The notes beneath the pieces were generated by a model. The model saw only the letters and a list, made by a program, of their open reading frames with translations. It did not search any database and was not told where the DNA came from. Below, one piece after another: positions 1-59,322 of a stretch of DNA of 64,000 nt. The translations under genes and the position numbers were made by a program. The stretch is from assembly GCA_028279685.1 (NCBI GenBank), contig JANQNG010000002.1:76144-140143 (forward strand), in the 5' to 3' direction. The DNA comes from Candidatus Nanoarchaeia archaeon (lineage in GTDB: Archaea > Nanobdellota > Nanobdellia > Woesearchaeales > SKIA01). How positions within the stretch are numbered: the first letter of the stretch is position 1; every line of letters begins with the position of its first letter.

Positions 1-203
1 TCAATATAACCTTCACTCTTTTTTAGAAAATAAAAAACAATATTCGAAGCAATAAGTGCAATCACTGCAAGTATCATAAAAATACCAAATAAATCTTCAG
101 CTCCCTCAGTCGCTTTTTTTAACAAAGTCCAAATCAAAAAAATTAAATAAATATTAAAGATTGCCCAAAGTACAATATAAACTTTGAATTTCTTTAATTT
201 CAT
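1..203 (-). CDS. small 2-TM membrane protein, 5' part only (ATG = revcomp of 201-203; runs off window start); putative immunity protein for the orphan RHS toxin tip
   Basis: Own translation of minus strand: MKLKKFKVYIVLWAIFNIYLIFLIWTLLKKATEGAEDLFGIFMILAVIALIASNIVFYFLKK...; two hydrophobic helices; sits immediately downstream of toxin tip 244..1281; resembles the 68-aa 2-TM protein at 1432..1638 in size and architecture. Confidence 0.35.
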   Translation of the reverse strand, partial: MKLKKFKVYIVLWAIFNIYLIFLIWTLLKKATEGAEDLFGIFMILAVIALIASNIVFYFLKKSEGYI

Positions 204-243: not shown

Positions 244-1281
244 TCATGAACATACTGTTACTTGTAAATTCCCATATGTTTGTGTTACGCAATTTGTACC
301 TTCATCATCTCCTCCTCCAGAGCCTCCCCCTCCTCCTGTAGGACCATCAGTTGTACTTTGTGTAGACTCTTCTTCATTGTTTAAACCAGCATAGTTTATC
401 CAAAAATTCACATCCCCTCCACTACCTCCAGAACCTGCCGTATTACTTGGTTGAACTGAGGAAGTCATATCTGTTGATTGAGTCAATAAATCTTTATCTG
501 AATCTTTCTTTACACATTTAGGACAATCATCATTTTCTTCAGCATATTTTTCAGCTTTCTTCGTAGATTCTTTGATACTCTCCGAACCTATAAACACTGT
601 TGTCGCCATCCACAGTGCCCCTACAGCTACTGTTACTGTTCCAGCTACTGCACTCATTATTCCCAACATAGCACCTTTAGCTCCAGACAAGGCAACATCC
701 CTTTTTGAATAAATCATTCCAGTTTCTCTTCTTTGGATTATCACTTCTGATGTAACCCCAATTATCGCACCGATAGCAACTCCAACAAGTATTGCAGCAA
801 TTAATGGAACAATATGTCCTGAAGGATCTGTATGTTTGTAAGAATTTTGCATCTCGAATCCATATCTGTTCAACGATTGCGGATTGTATATCGAAGGAAT
901 AATATTATCAGGTCGATTGAACATTCCTATACTTGCATCGTATGTTCTGAATTCAAAGTCATAACCAGAGTAACTGTCTTGTTCTTTTCCTTCATAATCA
1001 TATCTTGAACTACCGCCAGAAAGTACTTCGCCATAAGGCGAATAGCTTGTGTTTTCTATAACATCTCCTGATGAATCAGTCACTACCGTCGAGCTACCTA
1101 AATGATCACTATGATGATATAATTTTACTTCTGATAATTCCTCAGCTACTAGACTTCCTTCATGATAAACATATGTAGTATCATAAGTCCCGCTATCGTT
1201 GATGACTCTAATGTTTGTTTTATCAAAATAGACAACAGTCTCAGTAAGAGTCTCGCTCTCATCATACGTTTTCTTGACCAA
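244..1281 (-). CDS. orphan RHS/YD-repeat C-terminal toxin cassette (core-end region plus divergent toxin tip; 5'-truncated, no signal peptide)
   Basis: Translation carries the RHS core end (YDYEGKE..RTYDASIGMFNRPDNI..YNPQSLNRYGFE..DPSGH), then a glycine-zipper/TM-rich segment and a Gly/Ser linker ending NCVTQTYGNLQVTVCS. Nucleotides ~1040-1424 are near-identical to ~3290-3673 inside the full RHS gene. The frame stays open upstream to a stop at ~1433 without an ATG; the listed start is TTG, in frame with the homologous Leu of the full gene. Confidence 0.7.
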   Translation of the reverse strand: MVKKTYDESETLTETVVYFDKTNIRVINDSGTYDTTYVYHEGSLVAEELSEVKLYHHSDHLGSSTVVTDSSGDVIENTSYSPYGEVLSGGSSRYDYEGKEQDSYSGYDFEFRTYDASIGMFNRPDNIIPSIYNPQSLNRYGFEMQNSYKHTDPSGHIVPLIAAILVGVAIGAIIGVTSEVIIQRRETGMIYSKRDVALSGAKGAMLGIMSAVAGTVTVAVGALWMATTVFIGSESIKESTKKAEKYAEENDDCPKCVKKDSDKDLLTQSTDMTSSVQPSNTAGSGGSGGDVNFWINYAGLNNEEESTQSTTDGPTGGGGGSGGGDDEGTNCVTQTYGNLQVTVCS

Positions 1282-1431
1282 AACTCGTTCTTCTGTTGGA
1301 TGGTAGATGTATTCTTGGATTATGTTATCATTGGTTGCATTTCTAATAGTGCTTAATTGGTTTAGTGAATTATATTCGCGATAAAAGTCTTCATCAGAGT
1401 TACGAAGTAGGTTTCCGTTTGCAACAAGAAA

Positions 1432-1638
1432 TCAATAAAATTTGTCACCCAATTTTGTAGAAGCACCCAATACTCTCCAAACACCAATTATAATCATAAC
1501 AACAAACAAAAAATAATAATTCTTCAAATACAATGCAATAATTACTAAACATGCGGAAATTAGCACTGAAATAACAGTAAATATTAATTTTTTTTCATCA
1601 AGCTTTATTTTCTTTTCATCCATTAAACTATAACACAA
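1432..1638 (-). CDS. small 2-TM membrane protein (putative immunity protein)
   Basis: 68 aa with two hydrophobic helices; position directly downstream of the 93-aa toxin-tip-like ORF. Confidence 0.35.
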   Translation of the reverse strand: MCYSLMDEKKIKLDEKKLIFTVISVLISACLVIIALYLKNYYFLFVVMIIIGVWRVLGASTKLGDKFY

Positions 1639-1692
1639 TTCAAATATAAATAGTTATTGTTTTTATACACTGTTTATTAATAAATAAAAACA

Positions 1693-1974
1693 TTATGAGC
1701 ATACTGTTACATATCCAAAACCAAGGTAATAGGTGGTTGTGCATGTTTGACCTTCTGAATCTCCACTTCCACCGCCGGAGCCCCCGCCACCTCCCCCGCC
1801 AGAAGAACCCCCTCCAGTATTTGTATAATTATGGGTAAGATTCCAGTTGAGATCGCTTAATGCGTCGAGATCTCCTTTTTTACCTTCGAAACGTTCAGAG
1901 CAGAGGTATTTCATATTCTCTACGGTATCATTGATATCATTAGAAACAATCACTTCATACGTTGTATTAGACAC
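1693..1974 (-). CDS. small protein carrying the same C-terminal Gly/Ser-linker + Cys module as the orphan RHS tip (possible relic toxin tip)
   Basis: C-terminus GGGSSGGGGGGGSGGGSGDSEGQTCTTTYYLGFGYVTVCS parallels the orphan tip's GGGGGSGGGDDEGTNCVTQTYGNLQVTVCS; both genes share an 11-nt identity (catactgttac) within otherwise divergent 3' ends (244-330 vs 1693-1780). Confidence 0.4.
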   Translation of the reverse strand: MSNTTYEVIVSNDINDTVENMKYLCSERFEGKKGDLDALSDLNWNLTHNYTNTGGGSSGGGGGGGSGGGSGDSEGQTCTTTYYLGFGYVTVCS

Positions 1975-2012
1975 ATTCCTTGAATATCTTTAAAGAAAAA
2001 GTTAATAGAGAA

Positions 2013-2387
2013 CTATTTGTTAATCATATCTTTAAAATGTTTATAGCTATCCTCTCTTTCAAAAATATATGAATCAAATGTAAAAGAAAAAGTTTTCATT
2101 TTCTCTATTAGTGTTATAGTGATGCTATTGTTTAAAATCTCAACAGAATATATTATTCCAGAATATGCATTTTTATCTTTTGGGAAAACATAATTTCCAT
2201 TGTCGTCAATAAAGACACATTCTTTCCAAAATTCAAGAAAATCTTCATAATTCTTCGGATTGGAAAACTTAAAAACTCCAAAAGGTTTTCCAGGATTCCA
2301 GTGTGTGTCTATATTTAACATAATCGATAACTCAGAATCTTTAAGATTGACTTCTTTGATTTCTGAATCGTGAAAATTTTCTTTCAT
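2013..2387 (-). CDS. putative cytoplasmic immunity protein of the RHS toxin
   Basis: 124-aa ORF immediately downstream of the RHS toxin gene on the same strand; no recognisable family; assigned by position only. Confidence 0.35.
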   Translation of the reverse strand: MKENFHDSEIKEVNLKDSELSIMLNIDTHWNPGKPFGVFKFSNPKNYEDFLEFWKECVFIDDNGNYVFPKDKNAYSGIIYSVEILNNSITITLIEKMKTFSFTFDSYIFEREDSYKHFKDMINK

Positions 2388-2427: not shown

Positions 2428-3765
2428 TTATGTCTGATAACCGTCATCATCACAAGTGTCACACACCCAGTCTCCATCATCTGTCTGACGAACATTTGGA
2501 TGATTTGGATTTCCTCCAGACCAACCACCACCAATAAGTTGTTGAATTTGTGGACTTTCTGAATTAGGAGTTCCGCTTCCACCAAACCAATAATCCATTA
2601 ATATAGGTAAATTAATTGTTGGCATAACATTAAAATATGAAAAATAAGAAATATGGTCTAATATACCTCTATTTGCAAATTCAATCAATTTCCCATTTTT
2701 TATAGTATATCTGTGGTGATTTATATGTGGAAACTCCATTCCTGAATGCCCAAAATCATCTCTGATAATATCAACAGTTTTCCCCGAACGTTTTGCTAGC
2801 CCAGAACCAAATTGCTCAAGTCTTTGACGAATTGTACTTCGTGGATGAAATTCTTCAGCATGTTTATATCCTTGTTCTCTTAAAACTCGATATGATTCTC
2901 CTTTTCTAAATACACTGTCTCCTACTCTTGGCTTTACTTCATTTCTTGACATTACATAGTCTACAGGTATATTTACTCTTCCTTGACTTTGTCCTAATAA
3001 TGGTGTTGGCATAATTTGATTTTGACCTAATACAAGAGCAGTTGGATTAACCATTAATGCCATCCTACCATCAGGATCTATTTTGCTCATAGGATTACCA
3101 TCTTCAAACATATAGGGATTTAATCCCTGGGGATTATACGTATTCATTATATTATCTGGCTGGTTAAATATGCCATACTCCGAATTACTCATTCTCGCTT
3201 CAAAATCAATCTCCCTAGTAACTTCATCTGTTTCTTTTCCTTCATAATCATATCTGCTGGAGCCACCTGTTAATACCTCACCATACGGAGAGTAAGAAGT
3301 ATTTTCAATTACATCTCCTGATGAATCAGTCACTACCGTCGAGCTACCTAAATGATCACTATGATGATAAGTCTTAACCCCAGATAACTCCTCCGCTACT
3401 AGGCTACCTTCATGATATACATAAGTTGTATCATAAGTGCCACTATCGTTGATGACTCTAACGTTTGTCTTGTCAAAGTAAACCACAGTTTCTACTAAAG
3501 TCTCGCTCTCATCATACGTTTTCTTGACCAAAACTCTCTCTTCTGTTGGATGGTAGATATATTCTTGGATTATGTTATCATTGGTTGCATTACGTATAAT
3601 ACTCAATTGATTAAGCGAATTATATTCTCGGTAAAAATCTTCATCAGAGTTACGAAGTAGGTTTCCGTTTGCGTCATAGGTTCGAGATATTTCTGCAGCG
3701 AAAACCAAAGGAAAAGTTGTGACGAGCAATATAAGTAGTCCGGAGATAAATAGCTTAGATTTCAC
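2428..3765 (-). CDS. secreted mini-RHS/YD-repeat polymorphic toxin (signal peptide, few YD repeats, RHS core end, C-terminal toxin domain with FPHINHH motif)
   Basis: N-terminal signal peptide MKSKLFISGLLILLVTTFPLVFAAE; YD repeats (YDANGNLL, YDTTYVY, YDYEGKE); core end YNPQGLNPYMFEDGNPMSKIDPDGRM followed by a ~210-aa variable C-terminal domain. Confidence 0.8.
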   Translation of the reverse strand: MKSKLFISGLLILLVTTFPLVFAAEISRTYDANGNLLRNSDEDFYREYNSLNQLSIIRNATNDNIIQEYIYHPTEERVLVKKTYDESETLVETVVYFDKTNVRVINDSGTYDTTYVYHEGSLVAEELSGVKTYHHSDHLGSSTVVTDSSGDVIENTSYSPYGEVLTGGSSRYDYEGKETDEVTREIDFEARMSNSEYGIFNQPDNIMNTYNPQGLNPYMFEDGNPMSKIDPDGRMALMVNPTALVLGQNQIMPTPLLGQSQGRVNIPVDYVMSRNEVKPRVGDSVFRKGESYRVLREQGYKHAEEFHPRSTIRQRLEQFGSGLAKRSGKTVDIIRDDFGHSGMEFPHINHHRYTIKNGKLIEFANRGILDHISYFSYFNVMPTINLPILMDYWFGGSGTPNSESPQIQQLIGGGWSGGNPNHPNVRQTDDGDWVCDTCDDDGYQT

Positions 3766-4016: not shown

Positions 4017-5681
4017 TTACACATTAAAAGGCAATGCTGTCAATCCATCTTCGTGGTATTTTTTCATTACATCCCAAACATCAAAATAATCAAAAATCTT
4101 ATGTTCGACCATCCTCTGCAGGATCTTTGTCCTGAGATCAAGCTCCTTATATATATCACGAGTGTCTTCAAATCCAAGAATAGTAGCTATTTTCTTCTCG
4201 AGAATATAACTATTGAATAATCCTCTGAAAATATGTTTATCAGAAACAGGATCCCAATTAAATACTTCTCTCGTAATCACTTTATTGGCAACATCATAAT
4301 AACGCTCAATTTCAGTGATTGATAACACTCTTCTTACCATATGTCCTCCTCGAGAAACAGCTTGCTGAATCAACACAATATTGAGATTATCTATTGATGC
4401 AATAGGCACATCAATAGGATGCGACGTAATACGTTGTATCATACTATGAGGACTACCTGCGTGAAACGTACTCATCACAGGGTGACCTGTCTGCATAGCT
4501 TGGAATGCAACATTACCTTCTTCACCTCGTATCTCTCCTACAATAATATAATTTGGACGACTACGCAAAGCAGCAATCAACAGATCAAAAATTGTGACAT
4601 CAGAATCTTTCCCTGATTCTCTTGTGACAAGATGCTGCCACGTTGCATGAGGAATTGTAACCTCAGGAACATTCTCTACCGTGTATACTTTATCATCAGG
4701 TTTTATAAAACAGCACATCGCATTCAATGATGTTGTCTTTCCTGAAGCTGTTTCTCCACAAACAAACGTATTCATACCATTTTCTAAAGCCAACCACATA
4801 TATGCAGCAACGCGTGCACTCATCGTTCCCCAATTGATAATTTGTGTTATACTCACTGGCACTTCTGAGAATTTACGAATGGTGAAGCTGGAACCTTCGA
4901 GCGATAGCTCTCGCGAATAAATATAGTTTACACGAGAACCGTCAGGCATAATTGCGTCTACAACAGAATGTGCATCACTTACTGGACGCTCCACGCGCTC
5001 AGAGCTTTCAATAACATATTTGTCTAATTCAAAATCATCTTTGAAGTCGATATTGGTGTAAACCATATCGAAAATCTTATGGATCACTTTCATAGCACCA
5101 ACACCAGTACAATGCAGATCTTCAAGATAAGGATCATAGAAAAGCGGTTCAAGTTTTGCATAACCTACTCTATTCCTGATAATGAAGTACTTCAATGAAT
5201 CATACGTGTAAGGATCTAAAACAAGTTTTTTTGATCCTAATGCCTTGCTCTTCGGAATAACAACTTTTGCCCCCTCCTTTATCTCAACGACATCATTCAT
5301 GATTTTCAGAATAACAGGTTCAGCATCCTCAACTTTGTCAGGCACAGGATACCTATGTGCATATTCAACCATTTTGTTTGTTACGAGTTCGTAAAGCGTT
5401 CTCATCCGATCATCTAAGGCAGGCTCTACAACAGTATAAGTAATATGCATCCCTGGCTGCCTGAGAATATGCACAAACAATGGATCCCCTATAGGATAAA
5501 TAAGATTTACTTTTTTCTTTCTCATACCTTTATCGAGTTTAAGATGCCATTCTGGATCACCATATTTCTCAACAATCTTCTCAACATACTTAGAAAGATG
5601 CGGATAGTTATCCTGCGCATCGAGGAAATTCTCTGTTTTTGGTGCATGTCTTCTTTTTGCCATCTTAGCTGAAACTTGCAA
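4017..5681 (-). CDS. flaI: archaellum ATPase FlaI/ArlI (type II/IV secretion ATPase family)
   Basis: 554 aa; Walker A GETASGKTT; conserved FlaI-like regions; located after flaH. Confidence 0.9.
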   Translation of the reverse strand: MQVSAKMAKRRHAPKTENFLDAQDNYPHLSKYVEKIVEKYGDPEWHLKLDKGMRKKKVNLIYPIGDPLFVHILRQPGMHITYTVVEPALDDRMRTLYELVTNKMVEYAHRYPVPDKVEDAEPVILKIMNDVVEIKEGAKVVIPKSKALGSKKLVLDPYTYDSLKYFIIRNRVGYAKLEPLFYDPYLEDLHCTGVGAMKVIHKIFDMVYTNIDFKDDFELDKYVIESSERVERPVSDAHSVVDAIMPDGSRVNYIYSRELSLEGSSFTIRKFSEVPVSITQIINWGTMSARVAAYMWLALENGMNTFVCGETASGKTTSLNAMCCFIKPDDKVYTVENVPEVTIPHATWQHLVTRESGKDSDVTIFDLLIAALRSRPNYIIVGEIRGEEGNVAFQAMQTGHPVMSTFHAGSPHSMIQRITSHPIDVPIASIDNLNIVLIQQAVSRGGHMVRRVLSITEIERYYDVANKVITREVFNWDPVSDKHIFRGLFNSYILEKKIATILGFEDTRDIYKELDLRTKILQRMVEHKIFDYFDVWDVMKKYHEDGLTALPFNV

Positions 5682-6366
5682 TCTCTATAGCAAGTCCTTT
5701 ACCTGCCTCTACCTTATAAGGTATAGCGCTCAATACATTTGATCCACTTCTCTTAAATCGTTTAACCTTCATTACTCTGACAATCTCTCCTGCAAAACTA
5801 CTGATCTCCAATTCAAGAATCACATCACTAACATTCTTCACCAATGTCAATAATTTTGGATGAATGTGATCTTGATCAATATCAATAATCACCGTTTTTC
5901 CGAGTGAAGTAAGTCTTTTTAGGAAATAGATGAATTGAAATAATTCACGTTCCGTGGTATCATCTTGAACAATCAAGAAGCTTATTGTATCGAGAATTAT
6001 CACATCTTTGCTGTAGAGCCTAGAAGAATTCATCAATCTTTGGAGCATACCTCTTTGCAGCCTTGACTTTCCATAAAAAGGAAACATGGGAACAAACATC
6101 AAATCATCATCAAGCAAATAATACTTACAATCATAATCAAGGCTTGCCATCTGTTCAATAAATCCGACAGTATCAAGTTCAGAGCTAATATATGATGCAG
6201 TGTATCCTGCCTGCAATAATCCATAGCACATTCTTTGAGAGATAATGCTTTTTCCTGAGCCATCTTGTCCTGTAATAAGAATCAACGCATCTTTAGGTAT
6301 ACCTCCTCCTATGTTTCTGTTCAGTTCATCCCTTTCAAGGTCTATGGAAAGTACTTCTGATTTCAT
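5665..6366 (-). CDS. flaH: archaellum protein FlaH/ArlH (RecA/KaiC-like ATPase)
   Basis: 233 aa; Walker A GQDGSGKS; overlaps flaI start as is typical of archaellum operons. Confidence 0.85.
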   Translation of the reverse strand: MKSEVLSIDLERDELNRNIGGGIPKDALILITGQDGSGKSIISQRMCYGLLQAGYTASYISSELDTVGFIEQMASLDYDCKYYLLDDDLMFVPMFPFYGKSRLQRGMLQRLMNSSRLYSKDVIILDTISFLIVQDDTTERELFQFIYFLKRLTSLGKTVIIDIDQDHIHPKLLTLVKNVSDVILELEISSFAGEIVRVMKVKRFKRSGSNVLSAIPYKVEAGKGLAIEIASFS

Positions 6367-7250
6367 GGTGTCACCGTGATCGTCGCTGAGTTTTCAAATT
6401 CAGTAACGGCTTTCACAATCGTATTACCTCCTAATGTTTCAAAGATGTAAAGATCTATGATCTCTCCCGGAGACCAGAGCGTAGGCTGCAGATCATCATT
6501 CGTAATAAACTCTACTCGATCTGAATCATTACGTTTGATACGTTCCGACCCGACATAAACATCAACTTTTTCAAAATCATATGTTGTTGTTCCATCATTA
6601 GAAAGTGTTAAATAGATATGAGGACTTTGTCTCATAATAGTGATATTAACTTGATCAACTTTCGCTGTTTCTTGTGTATCCACCGTCTCAAGATCAATCT
6701 TAAGTTGTATCATCGAACTTTCATTATGAGTGATATTTATTTCTTCTCCTGAAGAAGTATAATAATCAAGAGGCCCATCAGGTCCAATGAAATCAGCATT
6801 TTCTATCTGTGTCGAAGTATTTCCTGAACGTAATTGAAAACGAACTGATGTTCCCACAGGAAGTGTAGCATTCCAGTAGATCTTTGAGAAATTGCTCGAG
6901 ATATTTATGTCATAGACTTCTGAATAGTATGTTGCTGAATTGTTGTAATCAGTGCCATTCCATACTGTCTGGATTGATCCGGGTGTGGTGTTTGTGTCAA
7001 TATTCGTAAAATTTGTTCCTCTATCAAAATCAGTTTTGAGTGTTAATACCCAAGGGATGTACATTGGATTATTGTATTGCTCTCCTGTGATTGATATTTC
7101 GCTTTCAAGCATTTTCAAGAGACGATCCTGCTTTTCCGTTATTGCTTCTTCCTTCTCGAGGAGCTTTGCCTGCACTACAAAGAATCCCCCTACAAGCATA
7201 GAGACTACTAAAAACAAAATCACCATTCCTGCAATCGAAGCAAATCCCAT
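6363..7250 (-). CDS. archaellum FlaF-like membrane-anchored protein, rich in N-glycosylation sequons
   Basis: N-terminal TM helix MGFASIAGMVILFLVVSMLVGGFFVV; more than 10 N-x-S/T sequons; position between a FlaG-like gene and flaH. Confidence 0.45.
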   Translation of the reverse strand: MGFASIAGMVILFLVVSMLVGGFFVVQAKLLEKEEAITEKQDRLLKMLESEISITGEQYNNPMYIPWVLTLKTDFDRGTNFTNIDTNTTPGSIQTVWNGTDYNNSATYYSEVYDINISSNFSKIYWNATLPVGTSVRFQLRSGNTSTQIENADFIGPDGPLDYYTSSGEEINITHNESSMIQLKIDLETVDTQETAKVDQVNITIMRQSPHIYLTLSNDGTTTYDFEKVDVYVGSERIKRNDSDRVEFITNDDLQPTLWSPGEIIDLYIFETLGGNTIVKAVTEFENSATITVTP

Positions 7251-7736
7251 TTAGTAATCCTCTGTTTTCTTCACTCCATTATCAGTAAGTAACGCAAACT
7301 CATGGCTAATCGATCCATCAATAGTCATGTTCACTGATACTTTGATAATCTCCTTTGTGTTCCAGATGCCAACATCAACAGTATCCGTATCTGATTCGAC
7401 AGCAATAGTTCTATTAGTCTCATTTCTAGGGATACGCAACCCGTCGATATAGATATCTATCTTTGAAACGTTATGTTTCTTCTTCCCAGTGTTTTTGATA
7501 TACGCAAAAGTATAATCAGGATCTCCCGAATCTTCATAGTAAACTGTTTCAATTTTGAAATCAGTATCAATAATATCAGTAAGACTTTCTTGTTTATCGT
7601 ACATTGCTGTTGTGGATTTGTCGGATGAACTTTTGAACACTAATGCTGCAGCAGTAGCTAATCCTAATACTGCTATGAAGATTATGAGGCTTGAAACGAC
7701 TTCTCCTGCCGCTTTTTTTGACTTAAACATTTTCAA
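7251..7736 (-). CDS. archaellum FlaG-like protein with class III (prepilin-like) signal peptide
   Basis: N-terminus MKMFKSKKAAGEVVSSLIIFIAVLGLATAAALVF; first gene of the co-oriented flaG-flaF-flaH-flaI block. Confidence 0.45.
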   Translation of the reverse strand: MKMFKSKKAAGEVVSSLIIFIAVLGLATAAALVFKSSSDKSTTAMYDKQESLTDIIDTDFKIETVYYEDSGDPDYTFAYIKNTGKKKHNVSKIDIYIDGLRIPRNETNRTIAVESDTDTVDVGIWNTKEIIKVSVNMTIDGSISHEFALLTDNGVKKTEDY

Positions 7737-14469: not shown

Positions 14470-14580
14470 AGCCCTGTAGTGTAGTGGCCAATCATTCTAG
14501 CCTTTGGAGCCGGAGCGAAGCTAGGCGGCTTTGCTTCGCAAAGACAGCTGGAGACCGCGGTTCGAATCCGCGCGGGGCTA
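14470..14580 (+). tRNA. tRNA-Gln (anticodon TTG) with a 38-nt intron at canonical position 37/38
   Basis: Hand fold: acceptor AGCCCTG/CGGGGCT, D arm GTGTAGTGGCCAATCAT, anticodon stem CTAGC/GCTGG, loop CTTTGG|intron|A, T arm CGCGG-TTCGAAT-CCGCG, discriminator A; A1-U72 and a GGGCUA 3' end fit my recollection of archaeal tRNA-Gln. Confidence 0.7.
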
Positions 14581-19267: not shown

Positions 19268-19675
19268 ATGAAATACTATCTTGATATCAAAAAAAGTGCT
19301 ATTCATGGCAAAGGAGTGTTCGCAAGAAACAACATTCCAAAAGACACTATGTTCTATCAAGTGCCTTTGAACCATATCTTTCTCAAACCGAAAGCAAGAT
19401 GTGCATATATAAAAGGAAAATACGTCTATGATGGTGCTGTACTGAACTGGATAAATCACAGCTGTGATCCCAATACAGAACTCGATGTTTCTGGTGATGT
19501 TCCTGTACTGAAATCATTACGCAACATCTCTCCAAAAGAAGAAATCACCGTAGACTATGAAAAAACAGAAAAACACCAAACAAAACATGCCTGTAACTGC
19601 GGCTCAAAGAACTGCAGAAACTCCTTCTGGAGCTCTGCAGTACTATCCACTTCAAAATATGAGTATCCTGAATAA
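19268..19675 (+). CDS. SET-domain protein (lysine methyltransferase-like)
   Basis: GKGVFARNNI..., NHSCDPN, EEITVDY and post-SET CNCGSKNCR motifs. Confidence 0.8.
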   Translation: MKYYLDIKKSAIHGKGVFARNNIPKDTMFYQVPLNHIFLKPKARCAYIKGKYVYDGAVLNWINHSCDPNTELDVSGDVPVLKSLRNISPKEEITVDYEKTEKHQTKHACNCGSKNCRNSFWSSAVLSTSKYEYPE

Positions 19676-59251: not shown

Positions 59252-59322
59252 GCGCACGTGGCCAAGTAGTAAGGCAAGAGGCTGCAACCCTCTGATCCCC
59301 GGTGCAAATCCGGGCGTGCGCT
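59252..59322 (+). tRNA. tRNA-Cys (anticodon GCA), no intron
   Basis: Acceptor GCGCACG/CGTGCGC, anticodon stem AGAGG/CCTCT with loop CTGCAAC, T arm CCCGG-TGCAAAT-CCGGG, discriminator U. Confidence 0.8.

Follow-up and report, generated by a model that had tools for sequence, protein, structure and literature searches.

A 64-kb stretch of contig JANQNG010000002.1 (hereafter the window; 36% G+C) carries an array of RHS (YD-repeat) polymorphic-toxin genes of the Woesearchaeota/Nanoarchaeota (DPANN) type, in which two open reading frames (ORFs), 244–1281 and 1693–1974, end with one and the same short module, in which a Gly/Ser tether leads to a two-cysteine tail that is predicted to form a disulfide-closed β-hairpin. 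All coordinates are window positions, and all features of the array lie on the minus strand. Sequence comparisons indicate that tail and tether make up a discrete, independently assorting unit under purifying selection, found on no fewer than five mutually unrelated membrane sub-domains from four assemblies. ORF 244–1281 belongs to an orphan cassette, and ORF 1693–1974 appears to be the scar of a deletion; the module is common to the two frames because both are the 3′ ends of cassettes in one RHS array. We consider this account of the anatomy and evolution of the two cassettes, the tail module and the chimera to be probably correct.

The two frames end in ...GGGGGSGGGDDEGTNCVTQTYGNLQVTVCS and ...GGGSGGGSGDSEGQTCTTTYYLGFGYVTVCS, respectively. 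In both, the tether leads into C-x-T-x-x-Y, a loop and [VI]TVCS, with C, T, Y, T, V, C and S as the invariant tail residues. Only these two frames in the window have such an ending, and degenerate DNA patterns written for the motif match once per copy in the window and never in 100 shuffles. The discrete two-Cys C-terminal module after a flexible linker, on which the original prediction was built, is thus real. The two copies are about 55% identical over 22–23 residues, with loops of different length and unrelated flanks, and therefore do not stem from a recent duplication. That their likeness reflects chance or a recent local tandem duplication devoid of functional meaning is extremely improbable: the copies are indeed adjacent and make identical synonymous choices at the V, T, V and S codons (P ~0.006 under the codon usage of the window), but their divergence, the 0/100 shuffles and the presence of the module in three other assemblies speak against it, these relatives already contradicting it. 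Far from being confined to the window, the module is carried by proteins P0006, P0124, P0016 and P0126 and by an orphan of locus L001 (P and L numbers designate the proteins and loci compared).

At the DNA level, the original prediction had singled out an 11-nucleotide (nt) identity between the two 3′ ends as a possible second recombination anchor. The word catactgttac is present at both sites (251–261 and 1700–1710), but it only spells GTA ACA GTA TG, the codons of V-T-V-C, and 34 of 300 shuffles (~11%) likewise yield a word of at least 11 nt common to the two ORFs. When the 3′ ends are compared by blastn, the top match (19 nt, E = 0.37) lies amid dozens of equal chance matches. An anchor within the window is therefore not supported. 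The matching synonymous codons are at most a faint hint of common descent.

An exhaustive HMMER profile search with an alignment of the C-terminal sub-domains against 1.84 billion representative proteins (E ≤1e-3) returned seven matches. Five are true carriers, each with the module at its C-terminal end, namely the window ORF, P0006 (standing also for the window orphan), P0124, P0016 and P0126. The other two are P0127, reached via the N-terminal part of the chimera, and P0125, an 829-aa artificial His-tagged construct with repeated domains on (G4S)n linkers; the synthetic sequences of the library draw Gly-linker profiles. Module carriers in this set therefore amount to about five clusters, all of them RHS tips, and a further variant, ...KCEWKTECYKTETEQICITYCA, ends the L001 orphan. 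P0006, P0124 and P0127, and also P0007, are encoded on one 248,659-bp NCBI contig, whereas P0016 comes from an ENA assembly and P0126 from seven JGI contigs.

The two halves of the tips have different relatives. In segment BLAST searches, the hydrophobic N-terminal sub-domain (N-sub-domain) of the window orphan is homologous to P0008, P0010, P0014, P0032 and P0090, all of which lack this tail, whereas segment BLAST and alignment match its C-terminal sub-domain (C-sub-domain) to P0006 and P0124 only (54% identity to P0006 over 100 aa, E 1.6e-16). The window orphan and P0124 share ~90% identity over their last ~60 aa although their N-sub-domains are unrelated, and the N-sub-domains of P0006 and P0124 differ again from that of the window. 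Likewise, the N-sub-domain of P0016 is 45% identical to the tailless P0009, and P0126 displays a P0016-type tail on yet another N-sub-domain.

The same partition is visible in the DNA of loci L001 and L056, where conservation is confined to two blocks, one covering 248 nt of the RHS core with 76% identity and the other the final 103 nt of the gene with 81%. The tail block contains ~12 synonymous differences and an exact run of ~19 nt, and it ends ~7 nt past the stop codon; since the DNA has changed at many synonymous positions while the peptide is conserved, the tail is probably under purifying selection. These blocks revive the anchor idea at the family level, in a weaker form only: together with the RHS core, the 3′ block could act mainly as a second homology anchor that permits a double-crossover swap of the variable middle of the tip. 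The two blocks do flank an unrelated middle, the protein mosaics P0005/P0006/P0124 and P0016/P0126 are of the expected kind, and the deletion behind ORF 1693–1974 ends exactly at a (GGN)n tract. We nevertheless regard a role mainly as DNA as unlikely. The window copies share just the 11-nt word discussed above, and the many synonymous differences in a block whose protein is conserved point to selection on the peptide; moreover, the immunity gene lies outside the block, so that a middle-only exchange would unlink toxin from immunity, and classical Rhs orphan replacement requires 5′ homology only.

Direct DNA searches for the tail returned out-of-frame chance matches only, whether with the 16-residue pattern in GTDB genomes or with both pattern forms in IMG/VR, or with a variable-loop pattern restricted to the Ser codon TCA in metagenomes. 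All these patterns proved too strict: they miss IKVCS (P0126), VTVC followed by a stop (P0124), and the Ser codon AGT or an Ala (L001). The original prediction could not assign the module to a known family; the tail indeed matches no NCBIfam or Pfam model at E values up to 10, and its profile has no meaningful match among Protein Data Bank sequences. Altogether, the module is real, rare in its exact form and without a match to any described family.

The array comprises the following features (TM, transmembrane; AF2, AlphaFold2).

2428..3765, minus strand: main RHS gene P0002, 445 aa, with signal peptide, YD repeats, core, non-membrane tip, Gly-rich stretch and Cys tail ...DGDWVCDTCDDDGYQT.
2013..2387, minus strand: soluble ORF of 124 aa lying just behind the main gene, no TM segment; presumed immunity protein, from position only.
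1693–1983 and 1432–1638, minus strand: decayed cassette (remnant with tail copy 2) and 2-TM gene, respectively.
1816..1983, minus strand: TcB-like repeat (PKD/CARDB-like) domain fragment, residues 1–53 of ORF 1693–1974, by P0127 homology.
1744..1815, minus strand: tether GGGSSGGGGGGGSGGGSGDSEGQT (Gly/Ser) within the remnant, its codons forming a GC-rich (GGN)n tract.
1693..1743, minus strand: hairpin tail copy 2, CTTTYYLGFGYVTVCS plus stop, from motif and AF2.
1432..1638, minus strand: 68-aa 2-TM ORF with two hydrophobic segments; presumed orphan immunity gene.
814..1431, minus strand: YD repeats and RHS-associated core of the orphan cassette, aa 1–206, ending ...HTDPSGH, from TIGR03696, AF2 and fold matches.
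532..813, minus strand: N-sub-domain of the orphan tip, aa 207–300, two to three hydrophobic helices with small-xxx-small (glycine-zipper-like) motifs; presumed to be the part of the toxin that enters membranes.
247..531, minus strand: C-sub-domain of the orphan tip, aa 301–395, with acidic stretch, Gly/Ser tether and hairpin.
244..291, minus strand: hairpin tail copy 1, CVTQTYGNLQVTVCS plus stop, from motif and AF2.
1..203, minus strand: 2-TM ORF of at least 67 aa, cut by the window edge, with a GGAG motif ~12 nt upstream of its ATG; presumed immunity protein.

Read 5′ to 3′ on the minus strand, the array thus consists of the main gene, the 124-aa soluble ORF, the remnant with tail copy 2, the 68-aa 2-TM ORF, the orphan cassette with tail copy 1 and the last 2-TM ORF. 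P0002 starts with a Sec-type signal peptide, followed by ~180 aa of YD repeats and an RHS-associated core at aa 158–233. The orphan ORF was called at 244–1281, but its open frame extends to 1431; frame 244–1431 has neither a start codon nor a signal peptide, and the cassette is 84% identical in DNA to the main gene over 477 nt. This 477-nt stretch represents the 5′ recombination homology, and frame 244–1431 is a classical orphan cassette.

The RHS identity of both genes rests on profile and fold matches. TIGR03696 (RHS-associated core; cut-off 32.5 bits) scores 44.0 bits in P0002 (aa 158–233) and 40.7 bits in the orphan (aa 130–206), and the end of the core, ...NPYKxxDPxGH, is kept across 120 homologues. 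Both genes match the YD-shell profile weakly, at its last part (positions 704–895 of 909 in Pfam TEN_YD-shell): a complete YD shell of several hundred residues is not present in the RHS protein, which has the ~180 aa of repeats only. With a 120-sequence alignment, AF2 builds the YD sheet (orphan residues ~20–140) with a predicted local distance difference test score (pLDDT) above 90, and the best Foldseek matches of this model (8qja, 6vhh, 6suq, 5kis_B, 4igl_B and 7q97; E 3e-6 to 1e-4) comprise Rhs cores, TcdB2–TccC3, YenC and teneurins. The RHS protein has 296 homologues, most of them 380–460 aa long, the named ones mainly from metagenome-assembled genomes of Woesearchaeota/Nanoarchaeota. Orphan and main cassette are each paired with a small downstream ORF (1–203 and 2013–2387, respectively), and a third small ORF (1432–1638) follows the remnant.

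The original prediction had placed the module on two toxin-tip proteins. This holds for the orphan, which is an RHS tip, but not for ORF 1693–1974, whose residues 1–53 derive from a TcB-like repeat domain: they are 82% identical to residues 81–137 of P0127 (E 6e-31), itself homologous to aa 1502–1840 of the L001 TcB-like protein, in a repeated β-sandwich region (E 4e-47). By tblastn, P0127 aa 78–132 align with 1983–1819, so that the homology begins three codons ahead of the supposed GTG start, which is an internal Val codon of the parent domain. The homology ends at ...NYTN(T/P)G, right where the (GGN)n tract of the tether starts, and the tail continues beyond it; ORF 1693–1974 is therefore most readily read as a deletion chimera that joins a piece of a TcB-like 3′ fragment to the 40 codons with which an RHS toxin gene, since lost, once ended. 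The 2-TM gene of the lost toxin would survive downstream as an orphan immunity gene. Units made of the 3′ end of a partner gene and an RHS gene exist elsewhere as orphans (L001, 13078–16313). AF2 leaves the first 74 residues of ORF 1693–1974 unstructured (pLDDT <50), and a word-indexed search of 5.8e9 proteins with this ORF gave a self-match only. Its D[LV]N.W.N segment had at one point been likened to DVNFWINY in the orphan tip, the ORF being then a stand-alone C-sub-domain; this was ruled out, P0127 showing that the segment is TcB-like repeat domain.

Both tethers (1744–1815 and orphan aa 313–339) have (GGN)n tracts as their coding DNA, and the GC content of these tracts is very high for a genome with 36% G+C. 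The deletion junction sits exactly at the 5′ edge of one of them, which suggests that such tracts are fragile or recombinogenic.

The orphan C-sub-domain (aa 301–395) contains, in order, an acidic stretch with DCPKCVKKD, GGDVNFWINYAGLNNEEE..., the Gly/Ser tether (313–339), DDEGTN and the hairpin. More generally, the constant sub-domain ends in a 30–70-residue acidic and Gly/Ser tether followed by a 15–16-residue β-hairpin with Cys as the first and last strand residues. In the AF2 model of the orphan tip, helices span residues 207–236, 247–280 and 284–298, residues 300–376 are disordered, and the tail folds into strands 381–386 and 389–394 around a G387–N388 turn (pLDDT ~82), so that C381 faces C394 and T383 faces T392. 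Copy 2 is modelled with strands 78–83 and 87–92 and the pairs C78–C92, T80–T90 and Y82–Y88, at pLDDT 55–67. Four-Cys relatives (P0016, KCFTKCYKDLGCITVCS; P0126, KCSVTCYKDLGCIKVCS; pattern KC..(T)CYKDLGCI.VCS) fit the same register: their two Cys pairs have the same i + j, as for two cross-strand disulfides, and the inner pair corresponds to Y–Y in copy 2 and to T–Q in copy 1. In addition, the Cys count is even in 61 of the 80 Cys-containing family members (p = 2.7e-6), a signature of paired Cys in exported proteins. The tail is thus predicted to be a β-hairpin closed by a disulfide between cross-strand partners, and the small disulfide loop, one of the options that the original prediction had left side by side, is the best backed by the modelled Cys positions, the substitution pattern and the even Cys counts.

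Two other structural candidates were examined. A zinc ribbon built from DCPKC and the tail Cys stays a minor possibility: AF2 shows no folded unit there, P0016 has no CxxC and the proteins are secreted. A derivation of the hairpin from a YD repeat, docking on the YD sheet, was dropped; blastp gives only weak matches (E 0.04–1 in a 120-sequence database) and RHS_repeat does not match.

Terminal Cys loops extend well beyond this motif. Among 112 full-length family members, 32 (29%) have at least two Cys in their last 25 residues, compared with 2.8% of internal 25-residue windows, and Cys frequency is 2.6% in tails against 0.34% elsewhere. Glycine peaks 26–50 residues from the C-terminus, the last Cys is usually 0–3 residues from the end, and an upstream Gly-rich stretch is found in 12 of 31 Cys-tailed members versus 9 of 80 others. 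Among other genes of the window, terminal Cys pairs occur in 5 of 70. The loops fall into several unrelated types (among them CRAYGNAKC, GCGxxxSC, C.SGC[SK] and DGxWVCxxCDDxG). The main gene bears the last of these: its tail (2431–2478, minus strand), ...TDDGDWVCDTCDDDGYQT, has a Gly-rich stretch and the two-Cys DGxWVCxxCDDxG motif, a type also found in P0074 (DGRWVCNWCDDQG; ...EDGRWVCNWCDDQG), whose tip begins with a TM helix. With the tails of remnant and orphan added, every one of the three cassettes in the locus has some form of Cys tail at its end. A second recurrent tail, devoid of Cys, ...(T)AGD[VI]IRRWR..., ends P0018, P0031, P0052, P0071 and P0082 (also P0044 and P0086) behind differing N-terminal parts and may be another constant tail module.

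Each module copy is followed by a small 2-TM ORF (1432–1638 and 1–203, the latter cut by the window edge), as the original prediction had observed. The tie that it drew between module and 2-TM genes is not supported, since TM-type downstream genes accompany membrane-type tips regardless of the tail: the gene after P0014 encodes a TM protein of 77 aa, that after P0007 a 156-aa protein with four TM segments and that after P0052 a TM protein of 109 aa, and P0008 precedes an uncalled three-TM ORF. Behind the soluble tip of P0002 lies a soluble ORF. Conversely, the same tail in P0016 and P0126 precedes TM proteins of 165 and 87 aa with no evident similarity by eye, so that immunity does not track the tail. 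On the simplest reading, it is the membrane sub-domain, not the tail, against which the small TM proteins confer immunity. ORF 1–203 is then the presumed immunity protein for the membrane toxin of the orphan, and ORF 1432–1638 would be the immunity leftover of the decayed membrane-type cassette, as suggested by the TM proteins encoded behind TM-type tips in L001, L009, L053, L054 and L056; from its position, ORF 2013–2387 is presumed to protect against the soluble tip of P0002.

Several neighbourhoods deserve mention. In the regions concerned (L056, 2400–7873; L057; L053, 5383–6403), the P0126 orphan has two IS110-family transposase genes and a HEPN/nucleotidyltransferase pair on its flanks, and a HEPN/NTP_transf_2 pair of the same kind stands beside P0008; the RHS cassettes of these loci sit in mobile or defence-island contexts. 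In the window, an archaellum/type-IV-pilus-like operon (4017–7736, minus strand) adjoins the RHS array upstream of P0002; it encodes an archaeal flagellin-family protein, an unassigned 295-aa ORF, a KaiC-like FlaH-type ATPase and a T2SSE/FlaI-type ATPase, and the stretch that separates it from the toxin gene has no gene for a membrane platform (FlaJ-like). Farther away in this small archaeal genome are a SET-domain protein, a putative lysine methyltransferase (19268–19675, plus strand), adjoining a dUTPase gene and two deoxynucleoside kinase genes, an ordinary tRNA (59252–59322) and a tRNA match of 111 nt (14470–14580, plus strand), which exceeds the 71-position model and is therefore probably an intron-containing archaeal tRNA.

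How might these toxins work, and what would the tail contribute? We propose that the RHS protein is exported by Sec and that its core cleaves off the tip, whose hydrophobic helices would insert into the membrane of a neighbour or target. Acidic tether and oxidised hairpin would stay behind on the outer (cis) side and form a tethered knob, which would stabilise the free C-terminus and/or make a generic surface or shell contact, and would carry no toxin–immunity specificity; the small TM proteins would be the immunity proteins for the membrane sub-domain. Such a generic role, independent of toxin–immunity specificity, is put forward tentatively.

A number of points weigh against this reading and the account that underlies it. 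The hairpin model leans on few tail-bearing sequences, its copy-2 version is of low confidence, and the cross-strand substitution pattern comprises three independent states only. The Cys spacings of the L001 orphan are unequal, with no simple register fitting them, and metal binding is a possible alternative for the four-Cys variants and for the CxxC (DCPKC) in the upstream part of the tip. N-sub-domains that we call unrelated could be very diverged homologues rather than recombinants. The window has neither a full YD shell nor a TcB-like partner with which the short RHS protein might encapsulate or deliver a cargo. Finally, disulfide, cleavage, membrane insertion and immunity are predictions drawn from sequences and models.

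The question of delivery leads to the TcB-like giants. No TcB-like gene is present in the 64-kb window, but in two other loci (L001, 4182–11191; L053, 1–4311) a short RHS gene lies directly behind a giant TcB-like gene (1,661–1,927 aa; FG-GAP, TcdB_toxin_midN and RHS repeats), with a 36-nt gap or a 4-nt overlap and with signal peptides on both partners. The pair resembles a split B/C cocoon. In L001 (13078–14940), an orphan copy of the giant gene's 3′ end is followed by another RHS gene. Cargo of Tc toxins leaves the cocoon C-terminus first (bioRxiv 10.1101/590430), and the tail could accordingly be the leading end or gate plug of a cargo in a TcB/TcC-like cocoon, tether and knob threading first through the β-propeller of the partner. 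Gene order, the fold matches to TcB–TcC, this C-terminus-first exit and the TcB-like fragment in the window remnant all agree with such a role. We still find it quite unlikely: besides the missing TcB-like gene, none of the loci read has a TcA-like channel, a hairpin stapled by a disulfide is ill suited to being threaded first, and each partner has its own signal peptide.

The original prediction had also considered a secretion, sorting or surface-attachment signal, which here would be read by a dedicated machine in the manner of archaeosortase/PGF-CTERM or of the C-terminal domains of the type IX secretion system. A strictly C-terminal element after a flexible linker, common to different cargo sub-domains and under purifying selection, in a family with other recurrent tail types such as ...AGD[VI]IRRWR, is what one would look for. 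But Sec-type signal peptides are already in place on these proteins; neither a hydrophobic helix nor a basic cluster or basic end is found in the tail, which matches no NCBIfam or Pfam sorting model; and the 24 kb scanned within the window contain no sortase-like or specific secretion gene. A general signal would mark many cargo families, whereas among 1.84 billion proteins the tail is limited to about five clusters of RHS tips, and at the level of the window the only two carriers are RHS cassettes. This makes a sorting signal very unlikely.

We deem it similarly improbable that the tail is a released bioactive peptide, be it the core of a ribosomally synthesised and post-translationally modified peptide (RiPP), with Cys and Thr/Ser cross-links behind a Gly-rich leader, or a terminal effector like the teneurin C-terminal associated peptide (TCAP). 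Its Cys/Thr/Ser-rich sequence after a Gly-rich stretch would suit the former; its terminal place on a YD-repeat protein recalls TCAP (PMC9108700), and the AF2 register suggests a hairpin with one hydrophobic and one Thr-rich face. However, the 20 neighbouring ORFs of the 24 kb scanned within the window include no lanthipeptide, radical-SAM, YcaO or other maturase domain and no peptidase-transporter gene, and no RiPP-precursor model matches. Moreover, the module ends RHS proteins of ~400 aa, the tail is neutral to acidic rather than cationic, and its sole stand-alone copy, on the only short ORF, is the chimeric remnant, which lacks its own start codon and signal peptide. That the same tail precedes different TM proteins also argues against a released effector.

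Compared with bacterial Rhs, WapA and TcC loci, the array displays the same TIGR03696 core ending in DPxGH and followed by a hypervariable tip, an orphan with 84% DNA homology to the main gene, and small ORFs directly after the main and orphan tips; its fold matches Rhs cores and TcB–TcC, and some relatives lie behind TcB-like partner genes. It differs in its archaeal (DPANN-type) host and in having ~180 aa of YD repeats with their own Sec signal peptide in place of a full shell. Unlike in the usual polymorphic toxins, a constant module lies C-terminal to the variable part. We found no literature on DPANN and RHS toxins.

A functional parallel for the orphan tip is Tse5-CT, the pore-forming C-terminal fragment of a Pseudomonas aeruginosa type VI secretion system (T6SS) Rhs effector, with its immunity gene tsi5 (PMC10684867). 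Tse5-CT is a cleaved, hydrophobic, membrane-active RHS C-terminal fragment with an immunity gene (PMC10684867), and the window tip likewise combines small-xxx-small helices with TM-type downstream genes. These glycine-zipper features (GVAIGAIIGV and GAKGAMLGIMSAVAGTVTVAVGA) lie in hydrophobic helices (AF2 207–236 and 247–280) directly after the RHS end. The N-sub-domain reaches the cut-off of no Pfam family, and no sequence homology to Tse5-CT was detected, a direct comparison not having been run. Delivery here cannot be by T6SS. Tse5-CT is not known to have a Gly/Ser tether with a terminal Cys hairpin.

In CdiA-CT, the variable region is divided into an N-terminal entry and a C-terminal toxin sub-domain that assort independently. 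The RHS tips described here also have a variable region of two independently recombining sub-domains, but the shared constant piece is C-terminal and tiny, and immunity appears to follow the N-terminal sub-domain. Disulfide-stapled hairpin peptides of the tachyplesin/protegrin type and the ‘Rana box’ terminal loop of frog peptides offer a structural likeness to the predicted fold, in which a membrane-active helical polypeptide ends in a short hairpin of antiparallel strands, held in register by one or two cross-strand disulfides. There is no homology, and the tail is neutral to acidic, on a long linker to a larger toxin; tails have no Arg, Lys is found only in the P0016 type, DDEG or DSEG stands ahead, and no cleavage site or stand-alone gene was found. 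PGF-CTERM/archaeosortase signals share with the module a strictly C-terminal position after a low-complexity linker on secreted archaeal proteins, but here the tail ends in ...VTVCS with no TM helix, basic tail or model match.

The second ‘protein’ being in all likelihood a recombination scar, ORF 1693–1974 is a warning against gene annotation of such frames, and the case documents a deletion at a (GGN)n tract inside RHS arrays. Polymorphic toxins are usually seen as a constant delivery part with a variable toxic end; in the RHS proteins of DPANN-type archaea, which have hardly been studied, a constant element of small size that appears to be kept by selection lies beyond the variable part, and similar terminal Cys loops occur in ~29% of the family sampled. 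It is possible, though we would not yet wager on it, that tether and hairpin are one case of an undescribed class of constant C-terminal knobs on archaeal RHS/TcC-like toxins that serve a generic delivery step. Somewhat speculatively, such knobs would be disulfide loops on tethers that assort apart from the toxic sub-domain and recognise the target surface or engage the gate of a TcB-like shell. If the class is real, the architecture of polymorphic toxins would gain a third functional layer on the C-terminal side of the toxin. Should the knob act in delivery or recognition, it would offer a way to study how archaea that lack a cell wall and depend on hosts direct membrane toxins against their neighbours, as well as a compact, portable tag for testing.

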